Source of the DNA: a virus
Taxonomy: Duplodnaviria > Heunggongvirae > Uroviricota > Caudoviricetes
Length of the DNA: 37,277 nucleotides
Strand: one strand, 5' to 3'
Virus record (IMG/VR): IMGVR_UViG_2711768166_000003
Positions 3,478 through 8,725 of the stretch are shown here, piece after piece. The notes beneath the pieces were generated by a model that saw nothing but the letters and a program-made list of their open reading frames with translations, had not been told where the DNA came from and did no database searches. Both the position numbers and the translations under genes were made by a program. How positions within the stretch are numbered: the stretch's first letter is position 1; the number at the start of each line of letters is the position of its first letter.

Positions 3478-4605
3478 TTACCACGCTACCTTGCTCCATC
3501 CTTTGCCTCGATCGTCATGATAACGATCGGTTTGTTGTTGCGTTTTATGGCCAAGTAGTTTTTGTGTGTCTACCCCCTGTTCTTTGTACAGACGTTCAGA
3601 TAAAGACCTTTGTTCATGGAATGTTGCTGGTGAGCCATTACCCCAGTCAATTTCTGCCAAATCTCTCGCTCTACTAAAATTCGTCGTCAATGTATTGGAT
3701 TTAACCTGCGCGCCACGTTCAGCCTGTGAAGTGGTACGAAAAAAATGCACAAGGTATGGGCTGACTGCATAGTCACGGCAGCGGGCGACTACATCGCGTA
3801 AACTCCAGTTAATTGCATTGAGGCGAAGGGAAAGCGGGATGGCGATTTTGCTCCCGGTTTTTTCTTGGATGACGTGAAGATGATCATCCCAAATATCGCT
3901 AAATTTCATTTTGGATATATCTCCCAAACGCTGCCCAGTGACCAAAGCTAGGAGCATGGCATTTCCCATGTAACGATGACTGGCGTCTGCTATATCGAAT
4001 ATTTTTTGCCATTCTTCCAGGCTGAGGCGTTGACGGGTAATTTTTCTTTTGGGTTGCTTCGTCGCAAGAGCAGGGTTATACCCTGGCGGAACTTCGCCAT
4101 AATGCTGTGCTTCCTTAAACACATCGATCAATACAGACCTAACGACTTGGGCCATTCTAGGCTGTCCAGCTGCAATATACTCATCAAGCAATTGTGCTAT
4201 ATCTCTAACATCAACGGATGAGATCAACTTCATTCCTGCTCGTTCTCTGAGCAAGGATACTGGTTTAGCTTTTTGCTTATAGGTGTTGAGTCTTATATCA
4301 CCACTTTTGAGCCTGTCATCCTGGATCGCTTGATAGCGATCTAACCAGGTTGACGTTGTGATCGCTTTTCCTTTGCTGGTTGCGATCCTATCACTGATAG
4401 CTAGAATCTGCCGGGTTCTTTGCTCAGCCAGACGAGTGTTAGCTTCAGTGGCAATAGCAATAGCTTCAGCTTCATTTGTGCCCAACGAATGAAATTTCCC
4501 GGTCACTGGATGCTTATATCGCCAATAGACTTTATTTACTTTTCTACTATAAAGCGGATACAAGTTAGGTACTGAAACATTATTTTTACGTGGTCTGGCT
4601 GCCAT
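3478..4605 (-). CDS. int: Phage integrase, tyrosine recombinase
   Basis: 375 aa; conserved catalytic elements TGQRLGD (Arg), HEQRSLSERLY (H-x-x-R) and C-terminal TDRYHD (Tyr); adjacent to att and excisionase. Confidence 0.95.
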   Translation of the reverse strand: MAARPRKNNVSVPNLYPLYSRKVNKVYWRYKHPVTGKFHSLGTNEAEAIAIATEANTRLAEQRTRQILAISDRIATSKGKAITTSTWLDRYQAIQDDRLKSGDIRLNTYKQKAKPVSLLRERAGMKLISSVDVRDIAQLLDEYIAAGQPRMAQVVRSVLIDVFKEAQHYGEVPPGYNPALATKQPKRKITRQRLSLEEWQKIFDIADASHRYMGNAMLLALVTGQRLGDISKMKFSDIWDDHLHVIQEKTGSKIAIPLSLRLNAINWSLRDVVARCRDYAVSPYLVHFFRTTSQAERGAQVKSNTLTTNFSRARDLAEIDWGNGSPATFHEQRSLSERLYKEQGVDTQKLLGHKTQQQTDRYHDDRGKGWSKVAW

Positions 4606-4846
4606 TGCTTAAAATCCTTTGCAGAATAATAGAATCACTTTTCTTGATTACTGGAGTAACTAATTCCCCAACTAACTCTGCGTCCTCACGTACTCGCCAG
4701 AGTCGACCTTGTTTCATTGCTGGTGGACAAAATAAATTCTGCTTAGCATAACGACGCAATGTGGACACACTTGGAGGATTACTCCTAAATTTTTCCGCAG
4801 CCCATTCCTCAAGTGTCAGCATTTGAAGCATTTTTGATAACCTCAT
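4586..4846 (-). CDS. xis: Excisionase (Xis)
   Basis: Small protein immediately upstream of and overlapping int; MLTLEEWAAEK...PSVSTLRRYAK...GRLWRVRED is typical of phage excisionase-type DNA-binding proteins. True start may be the internal Met at 4831, which has a GAGG RBS. Confidence 0.8.
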   Translation of the reverse strand: MRLSKMLQMLTLEEWAAEKFRSNPPSVSTLRRYAKQNLFCPPAMKQGRLWRVREDAELVGELVTPVIKKSDSIILQRILSNGSQTT

Positions 4847-4886
4847 TTCTTTTGCTACAAAACTATTTCACTAGTTAATTTCGCTG

Positions 4887-5423
4887 TCAGGATTGCTTAT
4901 GTATCTTATGCAGCTCTTTAAAACGTTCCATAAATATCTCGTAGGCATGGCCAGGAGCCAGAGGAACAACTTCGAACATCTCTGTTGCCGGGATACCTTC
5001 CAATACTGGCCAGAAAGAGCCATCATCAAGCCCGAGATCGCGGCGTTCGGTTGCCAGCATGATGAGATCGGCATATTTCACGGGCGTGCTCATAGCCTGA
5101 GGTAACCCGTATTTCTCACGGATTACGGCGTCTATTTTTTCTTCCATCCGTTTATAGTCAGGAAGAAGGCGTTTCAGTGCTGCGGGGATGTCCTGGCAAT
5201 ACGCTTCTGTTGCATCATGCATTAATGCTTCAAAAGCAAATTCCTGCGGTACCAGCATGCTGCAAAGCACCGCATGTTGGGCGACGCTATAGAAGTGTGA
5301 AAGGTGTCCTGCAAAGCGGCAGATATTTGAAAGGGAAACCGCGATATCGTTAATAACGATGTCGTCTTTATTTATCTTGTCATAATAAAAATGCTTCCCA
5401 GAAAAAGTTTTAATAAATGACAT
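4887..5423 (-). CDS. HD-domain phosphohydrolase (YfdR-like 5'-deoxynucleotidase)
   Basis: H...HD metal-binding signature (SVAQHAVL ... LMHDATEAY); start set at the Met preceded by GGAGAA RBS (MSFIKTFSGKH...), 178 aa. Confidence 0.8.
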   Translation of the reverse strand: MSFIKTFSGKHFYYDKINKDDIVINDIAVSLSNICRFAGHLSHFYSVAQHAVLCSMLVPQEFAFEALMHDATEAYCQDIPAALKRLLPDYKRMEEKIDAVIREKYGLPQAMSTPVKYADLIMLATERRDLGLDDGSFWPVLEGIPATEMFEVVPLAPGHAYEIFMERFKELHKIHKQS

Positions 5424-6376: not shown

Positions 6377-6441
6377 AATAAGTCCTCACTATATAAAGAT
6401 ATTCAGTGATGAGGTAAATAATCAGTTAATTAAGAACGATA

Positions 6442-6804
6442 TTAATGACCTGCTGCGCGGAGTTTTCCGTCAGGCTCACCGGCAAGAGTCAGTAATTGTC
6501 CCTGGTCTTCCTGCAGAATAGTCAGGCGCCCACCGCGATTGACATACATCGGCGTTTCGGTGGTGTCTTCTTCGGAAATTTTCCCGCGGTTAGTCGGGCG
6601 AACATATGAGAGTTTGTGTTTGATTTTCACACGGTTCTCATCAAATGGTTCGATTTCCAGGTTGAGTGAGACCTTACCTTTGGTTTTCGTGTTCATCACA
6701 CCGGAAGCGACTTCACTGAGAACTGCGCCGATTTTGGTTTCAAATACGCCGCCGTCCAGCTCCCCGATAAATGCCTGCACATCAGTACCGCGTTCGCTAG
6801 CCAT
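6442..6804 (-). CDS. Conserved prophage protein (YfdP-like)
   Basis: Start chosen at the internal Met preceded by GAGGAG RBS (MASERGTDVQAF...), 120 aa; the longer track ORF to 7032 is rejected. Confidence 0.6.
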   Translation of the reverse strand: MASERGTDVQAFIGELDGGVFETKIGAVLSEVASGVMNTKTKGKVSLNLEIEPFDENRVKIKHKLSYVRPTNRGKISEEDTTETPMYVNRGGRLTILQEDQGQLLTLAGEPDGKLRAAGH

Positions 6805-7083
6805 TTTGCTGCTCCTCATCATATCGACCCTGCAAGGTCGGTTGGTTTCTCCACAAAACAGAGAAGAACACCTGCGGTGGCAGCCGCCCGGATGGATTGG
6901 GTTATGAGCCCGTCGTCCGGTGATGCTCTTCTCTGTTTTGTAAAAAGAGCGGTACCAGCCGGAAGCAAGGGTACAAACTGGTACCGCCAGGACTACACAC
7001 AGCAATGAAACTATTGCCTGTCTTTTCACCACTTCAGGCTCGGTGGTATGCTGGAGTTCTCACACAGCCAGCAAGGAAACCTA

Positions 7084-7425
7084 ATGAACCAGTTTTATGT
7101 TCACGTTCGTCTGTTTGAAGCAACAGCCGAACAGACCAAAAAATTTGAAGAATTAATGCTTAACTTTCTGTACCAGAAAACAATCAAAGAGTCTGACGAT
7201 AGCTGCTGCAGACTGATTCCAGAGGGATATATCCTCAAAAGCACAATGAACTGCCAACAAATCCTTGATCAAACTTTTTCCATTGCTAACAGTGCTGGTG
7301 TTGACGCAAATATATTTGTCTGCAAATTTGAACAAAGCGCATGCTTACTTCCGTCTGCTTCCTTAGTTGGCAACGATTTTGTTCATCACGATCTTACGCC
7401 TAAGCCCATCAAGCTCGATTCTTAA
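7084..7425 (+). CDS. Hypothetical prophage protein (e14 YmfI-like by size and position)
   Basis: Start at the Met preceded by AAGGAA RBS (MNQFYVHVRLFEA...), 113 aa; its 3' end overlaps the convergent ORF 7363..7671. Confidence 0.5.
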   Translation: MNQFYVHVRLFEATAEQTKKFEELMLNFLYQKTIKESDDSCCRLIPEGYILKSTMNCQQILDQTFSIANSAGVDANIFVCKFEQSACLLPSASLVGNDFVHHDLTPKPIKLDS

Positions 7426-7671
7426 TGCCTTAACCATTGTGTCGTGATAAACACGGCTCACCCTCTCTCCATTGCATGGCAGTGGGGTGATCGTGTTAGC
7501 CATGAAATTCATGAACTTGGTTCGATCAGGGTCTTGCGCCTCGCAAGTCTTTAATGCCTGTTTTGCTAACAAAATACGGGCCTCAGTGCCTGCATTTGGC
7601 TCTATCTGCTGCAAACGTTTAGCGTCTTCCAGCAACAATGCGATCACATGCTTCAAATCCTGCTCATTCAT
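7363..7671 (-). CDS. Hypothetical prophage protein, first gene of the leftward early operon (e14 YmfJ-like by size and position)
   Basis: 102 aa; GGAGAG RBS 7 nt upstream of ATG; lies directly downstream of the OL/pL-like operator pair. Confidence 0.55.
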   Translation of the reverse strand: MNEQDLKHVIALLLEDAKRLQQIEPNAGTEARILLAKQALKTCEAQDPDRTKFMNFMANTITPLPCNGERVSRVYHDTMVKALRIELDGLRRKIVMNKIVAN

Positions 7672-7858
7672 CTATTCTCTCCACTGAAATCATCCGCTAA
7701 CGAATCATCCTGGACTTCATATGCCCCAGGCTGTTACTTCGTGGGCGTCCTGCCTGTTCGTTTTTGACATTTACTGACCGCTTACGACACATGCACCGTT
7801 TTGCAACCAGATTTTGTTGTAATCCTGTAGTTGGTCTGGAACAAAAGATAAAATTAAA

Positions 7859-7894
7859 TTGCGAGATATGCAAGTAATATTGCGATATATGCAA
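7859..7894. promoter_or_regulatory. OL-like operator pair (two 15-bp TTGCG-N5-TGCAA sites) with candidate leftward promoter
   Basis: TTGCGAGATATGCAA (7859-7873) and TTGCGATATATGCAA (7880-7894), centres 21 bp apart; on the minus strand TTGCAT and TATCTT hexamers with 17-bp spacing overlap the sites. Confidence 0.5.
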
Positions 7895-7905
7895 AATGAT
7901 GGGTA

Positions 7906-7928
7906 ATAAAAAGCCACCTTTCGGTGGC
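7906..7928 (-). terminator. Rho-independent terminator downstream of the repressor gene
   Basis: Minus strand GCCACC-GAAA-GGTGGC followed by TTTTT, between the CI stop (7949) and the OL sites. Confidence 0.6.
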
Positions 7929-7948
7929 CGATGGATGGGATATTGAGG

Positions 7949-8641
7949 TTAATTATGTCTCTTAAGGGTTTGCGACTGACTGATTAAGACCTTTCCAAAG
8001 ACCATGAATCGGTGTTCGTTTTCGCTAGTAATTCCCCATTCACGGTAAATCTGGTTATCAGAAATCACCAGCAGTTTGTCAGGAATCATTTGAAGTCTTT
8101 TAACGTATATTTTGTCATCAAAACCAAAGACATATATACCATCACCATCAAACTGATTGATGCTGACATCAACGAAGATGAGATCTCCTGGCTCAATGGT
8201 TGGACACATACTGTCCCCACGAACGTTGATAACTTTGATGTGATTGGCTGGTCGTCCGCCGAACATTGATACAGCATTATCAGTTCTGTATTCGATGGCA
8301 TGAATCACATCAATGACATCACCGCCCTGGATAAGGCCATTTCCCGCACTGGCACTGATATCCAGCATTTCAATACGGAACACATCCTTCACCTGCGCAA
8401 CATCCTCATTATTACTGTTTTTATATACAGTATTACTTTTGAGGGCAGAGGTAAAGAGATCAGCAATATCAACACCTAAGCTCTTGGCAATATTACTCAG
8501 TGTTTGTTCGGTAAATTGTTTTTGCTTACCCGTTTCTAAGCGCGAGATGTTCGCCGCATCTACTCCTATTGCTTCAGCGAGATCGGCGATTTTCATGTTC
8601 TTCGCTTGGCGAAGTTGTCTGACTCGGTTTCCTATGTTCAT
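7949..8641 (-). CDS. CI-type prophage repressor (N-terminal HTH, C-terminal S24 LexA-like peptidase domain)
   Basis: 230 aa; N-terminal XRE-type HTH (KIADLAEAIGVDAANISRLETGK), C-terminal S24 motifs (GDSMCPTI ... KRL); divergent from cro. Confidence 0.9.
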   Translation of the reverse strand: MNIGNRVRQLRQAKNMKIADLAEAIGVDAANISRLETGKQKQFTEQTLSNIAKSLGVDIADLFTSALKSNTVYKNSNNEDVAQVKDVFRIEMLDISASAGNGLIQGGDVIDVIHAIEYRTDNAVSMFGGRPANHIKVINVRGDSMCPTIEPGDLIFVDVSINQFDGDGIYVFGFDDKIYVKRLQMIPDKLLVISDNQIYREWGITSENEHRFMVFGKVLISQSQTLKRHN

Positions 8642-8654
8642 GCGTTTATTACAT

Positions 8655-8725
8655 TTCTTTATTGCGTGATAAGCAAATCAACTTGCGCAAAATAATTGCG
8701 TGAAATAACATGCATAACGCGCAAT
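8655..8725. promoter_or_regulatory. OR-like operator/promoter region between cI and cro
   Basis: TTGCGTGATAAGCAA (8662-8676), which fits the TTGCG-N5-(A/T)GCAA pattern of the OL sites, plus further TTGCG / CGCAA half-sites (TTGCGCAA 8683-8690, TTGCGTG 8696-8702, CGCGCAA 8717-8723). Confidence 0.5.

Follow-up and report, generated by a model that had tools for sequence, protein, structure and literature searches.

Convergent Prophage Genes ymfI and ymfJ Overlap at Their 3′ Ends, with Purifying Selection in Both Frames

A 37,277-nucleotide (nt) stretch of viral DNA (Duplodnaviria; Heunggongvirae; Uroviricota; Caudoviricetes; IMG/VR record IMGVR_UViG_2711768166_000003), referred to below as the window, carries at positions 7084–7671 two convergent genes, ymfI and ymfJ, whose 3′ ends overlap on opposite strands. 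Both open reading frames (ORFs) are genuine protein-coding genes, and the DNA they share bears the constraints of both. The pair was identified, by megablast against complete Escherichia coli genomes, as ymfI/ymfJ of the e14-type lambdoid prophages. The pair, therefore, has both a name and an annotation and belongs to a cryptic prophage that has been well studied; its overlapping transcription has already been catalogued. The arrangement is real and conserved, and it is not new.

Gene Pair and Geometry of the Overlap

The features at the core of this analysis are as follows (aa, amino acids; SD, Shine–Dalgarno sequence):

7084..7425, plus strand: ymfI, ATG-initiated ORF of 113 aa; SD AAGGA at 7073–7077, six nt ahead of the start
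7363..7671, minus strand: ymfJ, ATG-initiated ORF of 102 aa; SD GGAGAG six to eight nt ahead of the start
7363..7425, both strands: dual-coding overlap of 63 nt, in which ymfI codons 94–113 plus stop face ymfJ codons 83–102 plus stop

The original prediction, made from the sequence alone, had described 3′ ends overlapping by about 60 bp and good ribosome-binding-site and start configurations for both ORFs. This description is borne out by the measured overlap of exactly 63 nt (out of 342 nt in ymfI and 309 nt in ymfJ) and by the two SD sequences, each followed by an ATG. A longer, 125-aa version of ymfI starting at 7048 was rejected: 1-nt indels at 7048–7084 break its frame in relatives, and the DNA there is nearly invariant.

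The two genes meet in the antiparallel phase in which codon position 1 of ymfI lies opposite position 3 of ymfJ. At the borders of the overlap, the ymfJ stop TAA faces Leu94 (TTA) of ymfI, and the ymfI stop TAA faces Leu83 (TTA) of ymfJ. This geometry calls for a caveat: in this phase, an antisense extension of ~20 codons is not improbable, as the partner gene need only avoid the codons TTA, CTA and TCA. Still, the overlapping arrangement goes beyond chance, since it is annotated in RefSeq, recurs in hundreds of genomes, stays open in all related loci and is accompanied by purifying selection on both frames, as detailed below.

In E. coli K-12, the orthologous genes b1143/b1144 share 95.9% DNA identity with the pair over 588 of 588 nt. 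The full 588-nt pair is present in 303 of the 5426 complete E. coli genomes at an identity of 95.6–100%, and RefSeq annotates both coding sequences (CDSs) with the identical overlap, labeling them “ymfI” and either “ymfJ” or “hypothetical protein”. Related pairs were also gathered from Salmonella, Klebsiella, Enterobacter and 40 IMG/VR contigs. Stop codons or frameshifts in one of the frames, named in the original prediction as the sign that would speak against it, were sought in these relatives, and both ORFs turned out to be open in all 54 loci (E. coli, Salmonella, Klebsiella, Enterobacter and IMG/VR), with overlaps of 42, 63 or 72 nt in one and the same phase. Two pairs in which YmfI is only 48–53% identical possess different short tails of their own and still overlap a ymfJ-like partner, by 42 nt and, in the 53%-identical pair, by 22 nt. 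The representative genomes of GTDB yielded two loci only, both from E. coli, and are uninformative on diversity.

Purifying Selection in Both Frames

Evidence for the reality of both genes comes from the distribution of substitutions among codon positions. Parsimony substitution steps per site were counted on 26 distinct haplotypes; in this arrangement, position 1 of ymfI is position 3 of ymfJ, and position 3 of ymfI is position 1 of ymfJ. The values at ymfI positions 1/2/3 were as follows:

ymfI-only DNA: 0.58/0.46/1.86 steps per site, the coding signature of the plus strand
ymfJ-only DNA: 2.07/0.70/0.78 steps per site, the coding signature of the minus strand
overlap: 0.65/0.50/0.85 steps per site

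In line with these signatures, the pairwise ratio of nonsynonymous to synonymous substitution rates (dN/dS) outside the overlap ranged from 0.05 to 0.25 for ymfI and from 0.18 to 0.33 for ymfJ. Thus, the dN/dS analysis in homologous loci, proposed earlier as a check of the pair, reveals purifying selection in both frames.

Inside the overlap, the total substitution rate is at its lowest. The wobble positions of both frames change there more slowly than in the respective flanks (1.86 steps per site for ymfI and 2.07 for ymfJ; Poisson p = 1.7e-4 and 2.5e-7). The constraint is not uniform along the shared DNA: it is ymfI-like up to about position 7384, mixed at 7384–7414 and ymfJ-like after that. 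At the start of the overlap, where the first approximately seven codons evolve in the ymfI manner, the ymfI residues LVGNDF are invariant, and the ymfJ tail opposite them (NKIVAN) is variable; the final few codons of the overlap evolve in the ymfJ manner. The ten codons in the middle (about 7384–7414) display ~1 step per site at all three positions, i.e., a relaxed constraint in both frames. The functional overlap is, hence, much smaller than the 63-nt overlap of the ORFs, because the weakly constrained tail of each protein covers the constrained end of the other.

Transcription across the Overlap

A scan for terminators between the stop codons of ymfI and ymfJ found nothing. A potential hairpin in the overlap region (7385–7449) was considered and rejected: its single-sequence folds had z-scores of −1.3 and −1.9, and the consensus of 17 sequences reached −3.6 kcal/mol with no compensatory pair. 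Two terminator-like sites on the plus strand (7533–7547 and 7741–7757) were likewise dismissed as conserved terminators, both being weak and the latter not kept in relatives. Since a conserved terminator or hairpin is missing between the two genes, their transcripts, if both are made, would unavoidably be mutually antisense.

Overlapping transcripts have been recorded for the K-12 ortholog: ymfI–ymfJ is one of the 165 convergent pairs of the core E. coli excludome, found in at least 50% of 58 transcriptomes, and the sieB–ydaF pair of the Rac prophage likewise belongs to this core set (PMC12288877). In a time course of the K-12 SOS response, ymfJ mRNA rose late (log2 fold change of 4.05 and 4.83), the YmfJ protein was detected after DNA damage, and the log2 fold change of ymfI reached 1.0 and 2.0 (PMC11002266). 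The late induction of ymfJ was attributed by the authors to control by the CI-like repressor of e14 (PMC11002266).

The Leader of ymfI and the sieB Slot

Upstream of ymfI, there is a short, nearly invariant block of DNA that also accompanies a variety of other small genes. Its features are as follows:

7014..7083, no strand assigned: ymfI leader of ~68 nt, nearly invariant, conserved across upstream regions
7028–7047, no strand assigned: inverted repeat ACCAC-N10-GTGGT within the leader
7025–7052, plus strand: predicted ymfI promoter, with −35 TTCACC at 7025–7030, a 16-nt spacer and an extended −10 TGgTATGCT at 7044–7052

The leader is conserved in all 33 distinct upstream regions, including those of loci with ~50%-identical YmfI, and the DNA further to the left is unrelated. 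The block is non-coding, since relatives carry one-nt indels in it. An exact-pattern scan of IMG/VR (CGGTGGTATGCT-N6-7-CTCACAC) retrieved it from at least 120 contigs, where it precedes, among the contigs listed, at least 13 blastp-distinct families of small cargo ORFs (59–163 aa). The mean between-family identity is 84% in the leader vs. 27% in the next 100 nt, the former figure including 19 of the 68 leader nt set by the search pattern itself. Two kinds of cargo, starting with MAKFTV... and MTRFIV..., are distant relatives of YmfI (NCBIfam E = 1e-9 and 9e-7; hhalign probability 62%). Most of the other cargo genes behind the leader overlap their convergent partner, by 4–72 nt; the most common family is instead separated from it by a 77-nt gap. 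On the whole, most families either converge on the 3′ end of an early gene of the other strand or overlap it. No paper came up when the literature was searched for the sequence of the leader.

The left half of the leader (7015–7047) is, by blastn against phages, 94% identical to the DNA just upstream of sieB in lambda, P22, HK620 and others. Read on the minus strand, the leader aligns with P22 sas RNA over the 3′ part of the latter, ACCACCGAGCCUGA.GUGGU.AAAAGACAGGCA, the 5′ part being only loosely similar; the sequence of this RNA is tabulated in PMC13397905. In PMC12197685 and PMC7067206, which summarize Ranade & Poteete (1993), sas is described as a cis-antisense RNA that shifts translation of sieB from SieB to Esc. 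The place of ymfI is also that of sieB in lambda, P22 and Rac, namely a rightward gene between the first gene transcribed from the early-left promoter (PL) and the ral/kil region. A homology of YmfI to SieB was considered and rejected (hhalign of the YmfI profile vs. P22 SieB, probability 0.9%). Judged by its sequence, ymfI is not a sieB gene, although it sits in the slot of sieB and has the antisense-RNA region of that slot. It would rather represent an oppositely oriented accessory gene (“moron”) with a promoter of its own in the leader.

YmfJ, a Modular Protein

YmfJ matches PHROG 12693 over its full length (1e-70), and AlphaFold2 (AF2) predicts a helical structure for it with low confidence. 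The protein is made up of two modules, ELKHVIALLLEDAKRLQQIEPNAGTEARI at the N-terminus and TPLPCxGxxVxRVYHDTMVKALRIEL... at the C-terminus. Beside ymfI, the C-terminal module is always the same (...RVYHDTMVKALRIEL...), and the N-terminal modules joined to it are of at least four unrelated kinds. Two of the N-modules are recurrent, i.e., type A (ELKHVIALLLED...) and type B (MEFKDLP..QEIAAQ...), and both bear other C-terminal sequences beside different cargo. Next to cargo of the MSNSI kind, one C-module is kept on two different N-modules. The common E. coli proteins P0096 and P0109 (133 aa) possess an MEFKDLP-type N-terminal region, like type B, followed in tandem by a type-A N-module; such tandems show that the N-modules recombine freely. 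As the C-module follows the cargo and the N-modules swap, what travels together is a unit of leader, cargo and the C-module encoded at the end of the first early gene. The joint inheritance of ymfI and the C-module of ymfJ is explained by the overlap, which welds them together.

By its position, ymfJ is expected to be the first gene of the early-left (PL) operon, the place held by N in lambda and by gene 24 in P22. A homology of YmfJ to the antiterminators gp24/N was considered and rejected: hhalign of its profile against P22 gp24 returned a probability of 0.1%, and its N-terminus is acidic, not arginine-rich.

YmfI, a Small Protein with a Lineage-Specific Tail

YmfI matches the NCBIfam equivalog model NF051477 with 162 bits (cut-off 140; E = 3.5e-48), the alignment being confined to residues 1–90 against model positions 1–89, and it also matches PHROG 8894. 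Its homologs keep the frame down to 48% identity. The family is small: an exhaustive hidden Markov model search of 1.84 billion proteins returned only 16 representative clusters.

The AF2 model, which as a whole has a mean predicted local distance difference test (pLDDT) score of 71, predicts a beta-alpha-beta-beta-alpha-beta ferredoxin-like core at residues 1–86. The tail (residues 87–113), of which residues 94–113 are antisense to ymfJ, is predicted to be disordered (pLDDT below 50). Distant relatives of YmfI are 92–96 aa long and stop right after the conserved LLP motif, without a tail. The tail is lineage-specific, since these relatives lack it, the NCBIfam model stops at residue 90 and the pLDDT of this part is below 50.

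No Pfam domain was found in YmfI or YmfJ; PADLOC returned no match for either protein at an E of 1 or below, and a sequence search of the PDB gave nothing below E = 0.4 for either of them. Foldseek comparisons of YmfI with PDB and BFVD gave generic ferredoxin-fold matches only (E above 0.003). Cas2 and GhoS (2llz, TM score 0.53–0.59) were among the top matches, which overall had TM scores of 0.42–0.59 and E of at least 0.014 and included many generic ferredoxin folds. Membership of YmfI in the GhoS family (Pfam PF11080) was rejected: no YmfI member matches it, and hhalign of the superfamily profile against E. coli GhoS returned a probability of 0.4%. The MAKFTV cargo, a distant YmfI relative, does hit Pfam GhoS (E = 0.0018), falling below the cut-off.

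Neighborhood of the Pair

From left to right, the genes around and including the pair are int, xis, yfdR, yfdQ and yfdP (all on the minus strand), ymfI (plus), ymfJ (minus), a cI-like repressor gene (minus), a cro-like gene and ymfL (plus). The elements flanking the pair are listed below (UTR, untranslated region; OL and OR, left and right operators):

7949..8641, minus strand: cI-like (XRE/LexA-family, S24 peptidase) repressor, from the ORF and the RefSeq annotation of an identical locus
7912–7929, minus strand: terminator of the repressor gene, GGCCACCGAAAGGTGGCT followed by a T-run, from the terminator scan
7672..7905, minus strand: intergenic region between the repressor gene and ymfJ, with operator-like palindromes, the candidate PL and the structured ymfJ 5′ UTR
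7859–7873 and 7880–7894, between the repressor gene and ymfJ: operator-like palindromes TTGCGAnATATGCAA (putative OL)
8662–8676 and 8710–8724, between cI and cro: related copies of the palindrome (putative OR)
7873–7845, minus strand: candidate PL promoter at a predicted position, with −35 TTGCAT at 7873–7868 and −10 TATCTT at 7850–7845
6942..7008, minus strand: KilS-like segment, from alignment to the Rac small RNA KilS (b4833), with terminator arms at 6948–6958 and 6979–6989 and a U-run at 6942–6946

Allowing three mismatches, the window as a whole contains no more palindromes than expected from shuffled sequence; the two exact copies, however, lie next to each other. The part of the ymfJ 5′ UTR at 7690–7765 (minus strand) is kept among loci with different immunity regions, up to the immunity-specific part, and its consensus fold includes three base pairs with compensatory changes; it could be a nut-like or another regulatory RNA element.

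To the left of the leader, the KilS-like segment follows immediately after the sas-like element in the direction of the minus strand. KilS is an Hfq-binding small RNA of the Rac prophage (PMC8175672), and the sas-like and KilS-like elements may constitute one leftward small RNA. The DNA at 6900–7050 is 96–99% identical in many Stx2c and mEp460-type phages. Next to it, positions 6853–6941 harbor an inverted repeat of ~89 nt (ACAAAACAGAGAAGA...TCTTCTCTGTTTTGT) capable of forming a long, near-perfect hairpin (z-score of the fold of 6845–7035, −5.5); the repeat looks like an insertion, since the homologous Rac region is without it. A search of Rfam returned no match within 6400–8100.

In some relatives, the surroundings of the pair differ. 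In the Klebsiella contig L007 (3366–5342), matches to DUF2767, DUF3037 and HipA_2 are located to the right of ymfI/ymfJ, where other loci have the repressor gene; the pair can, therefore, occur outside its usual immunity context. In contig L054, which carries the 53%-identical pair, the slot is flanked by a 156-aa ORF (1881–2351), membrane-protein-like by sequence, and by a 557-aa ORF (3562–5235) with weak PADLOC matches (PDC-M28C and mad8), which suggests a defense-gene neighborhood.

Proposed Mechanism and Rival Explanations

Taken together, these observations are probably best accounted for by two real genes, the CDS overlap of which is a by-product, and by a regulation arising from their convergent layout. 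The overlap would result from genome compaction in a permissive antisense phase and would not be a regulatory device itself; its consequence would be the welding of ymfI to the C-terminal module of ymfJ. In the lysogen, PL would be repressed and ymfI expressed from its own leader. Upon induction or infection, transcription from PL would pass ymfJ and then run antisense across the whole of ymfI and its leader. As a result, ymfI would be silenced by transcriptional interference (collision) and by antisense RNA covering its ribosome-binding site, in the way P22 sas acts on sieB.

Several points weigh against this scenario. The expression evidence comes from the K-12 ortholog only, the window itself being read as sequence. 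In the K-12 SOS data, ymfI rises modestly, rather than falls, as ymfJ is induced, so exclusion is not demonstrated there; if the assay did not resolve the strands, this rise could reflect antisense read-through. A strict scan for consensus promoters did not call the ymfI promoter, and the predicted one is not located at the annotated P22 sieB promoter, which aligns further downstream. Finally, the low wobble variation in the overlap could partly stem from a constraint at the RNA or DNA level and not from two protein constraints.

Among the alternatives, the one in which either ORF is a non-coding shadow, open only because the phase rarely yields stops, has next to no probability left. The position 1/position 3 phase is indeed the most permissive one, with stops arising only opposite TTA, CTA and TCA, and neither protein has a Pfam domain. 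However, the overlap comprises only 63 nt, and the shadow reading is refuted by the coding signature that each frame carries outside of it, i.e., its own third-position excess and a low dN/dS (0.05–0.33). This branch of the original prediction is also contradicted by the detection of the K-12 YmfJ protein, by the match of YmfI above the NCBIfam equivalog cut-off, with NCBIfam/PHROG models matching both proteins, and by the retention of the ymfI frame at 48% identity. It appears unlikely, too, that the 3′–3′ overlap is a selected device, in which a duplex of the mRNA 3′ ends cut by RNase III would enforce mutually exclusive expression, as in a minimal, OOP-like excludon. Such a device would fit the presence of the overlap in every locus and in the diverged pairs, the 4–72-nt overlaps of most other cargo genes, the inclusion of K-12 ymfI–ymfJ in the published excludome and the minimum of the substitution rate. 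On the other hand, the overlap varies in length (22, 42, 63 or 72 nt), the most common cargo family has a 77-nt gap, P22 sieB and gene 24 do not overlap, and lambda sieB and N merely abut. Moreover, the overlap displays no conserved structure or covariation, its low wobble rates are fully accounted for by two protein constraints, and, without a terminator, antisense pairing would reach far past the CDS overlap anyway. Of the other branch of the original prediction, a convergent module with transcripts mutually antisense at their 3′ ends and possibly regulated thereby, the anatomy stands and is matched by the K-12 ortholog in the core excludome. The 3′ overlap itself as the regulatory device appears unlikely: it contains no conserved RNA structure or terminator, and the known antisense mechanism of this slot (P22 sas RNA) hits the 5′ end of the rightward gene and not the 3′ end.

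Two further proposals concern the proteins. By analogy with SieB/Esc of P22, YmfI and the C-module of YmfJ might be a cognate pair, a prophage exclusion or toxic factor and its early, PL-made neutralizer, which the overlap would keep from being separated by recombination. This seems doubtful. The union of at least four unrelated N-modules with one C-module beside ymfI, the different C-termini beside other cargo and the MSNSI case speak for it, as do the sieB/esc nature of the slot and the defense-like genes beside some relatives; at the same time, adjacency and overlap alone explain the co-inheritance, PADLOC has no match for either protein, and the YmfJ model is of low confidence. It is distinctly improbable that YmfI is a small GhoS/Cas2-like endoribonuclease cleaving specific phage or host mRNA, as its predicted fold might hint. 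The ferredoxin-like core, the ranking of Cas2 and GhoS (TM score 0.53–0.59) among the top Foldseek matches and the Pfam GhoS hit of the MAKFTV cargo (E = 0.0018), itself recognized by the NCBIfam YmfI_phage model (E = 1e-9), point in this direction, but all Foldseek E-values are above 0.01, the fold is generic, no YmfI member matches Pfam GhoS and the hhalign probability is a mere 0.4%. A broader conjecture, to be regarded as a long shot, is that the sieB slot might be a cassette system of enterobacterial lambdoid prophages. All cassettes would have in common a sas-homologous leader of ~68 nt, one strand of which would provide promoter and 5′ UTR and the other a universal antisense silencer. 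Behind it, small cargo genes of at least 13 families, YmfI among them, would be interchangeable, each bringing along its own C-module grafted onto the first PL protein; cargo and C-module would be exclusion–escape pairs in the manner of SieB and Esc, welded by the 3′ overlap.

Significance

As stated, the finding changes little for a pair that is already named, annotated and catalogued for its overlapping transcription. Its added value is in the clean demonstration of selection on both frames and in the dissection of the dual coding, a worked example for annotators who have to choose between a “shadow ORF” and true dual coding. The surrounding architecture, i.e., the sas-like leader, the swappable cargo and the co-varying C-module, may be more useful than the pair itself. 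If this architecture holds up, the leader would provide a simple sequence handle for harvesting prophage accessory or exclusion genes, and the architecture would offer a testable model for switching accessory genes off at induction.

Comparison with Known Systems

The closest counterpart is the ymfI/ymfJ pair of the K-12 e14 prophage, which has the same protein lengths (113 and 102 aa), the same 63-nt overlap and the same position beside a cI-like repressor gene, flanked by xisE/intE on the left and by the cI-like gene, a cro-like gene and ymfL on the right. The prophage in the window differs from e14 by the yfdP/yfdQ/yfdR-type genes between ymfI and xis/int, by another repressor/cro allele and by a few amino-acid differences.

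Excludons (ExcludonFinder, NAR 2025) are also convergent pairs with overlapping transcripts, the RNA-seq evidence in the present case being that of the K-12 ortholog only. In contrast to them, the overlap here extends beyond the UTRs and takes in the coding sequence of both genes. In lambda, the 3′ end of cII is covered by OOP, a short antisense RNA that is non-coding and has a terminator of its own. The resemblance is in a transcript that can pair with the 3′ end of an early gene convergent with it; the difference is that both partners here are mRNAs with no conserved terminator.

The sieB region offers a further comparison. The ymfI leader carries TGnTATGCT, which is missing from lambda and P22, and no internal, esc-like start is evident in ymfI. 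The spacing of the convergent genes also differs: in P22, where c2, OL/PL, nutL and gene 24 (minus) are followed by sieB/esc (plus) with its own promoter, there is a 20-nt gap; in lambda, N (minus) and sieB (plus) abut with 0 nt between them; and in Rac, ydaF (minus) and sieB (plus) overlap by 4 nt, vs. 63 nt in ymfI/ymfJ. At the same time, all of them share with the present pair a rightward accessory gene to the left of the repressor gene that converges on the first PL gene, facing its 3′ end, and is preceded by a sas-homologous element; in P22, control of sieB by this leftward antisense RNA is documented.

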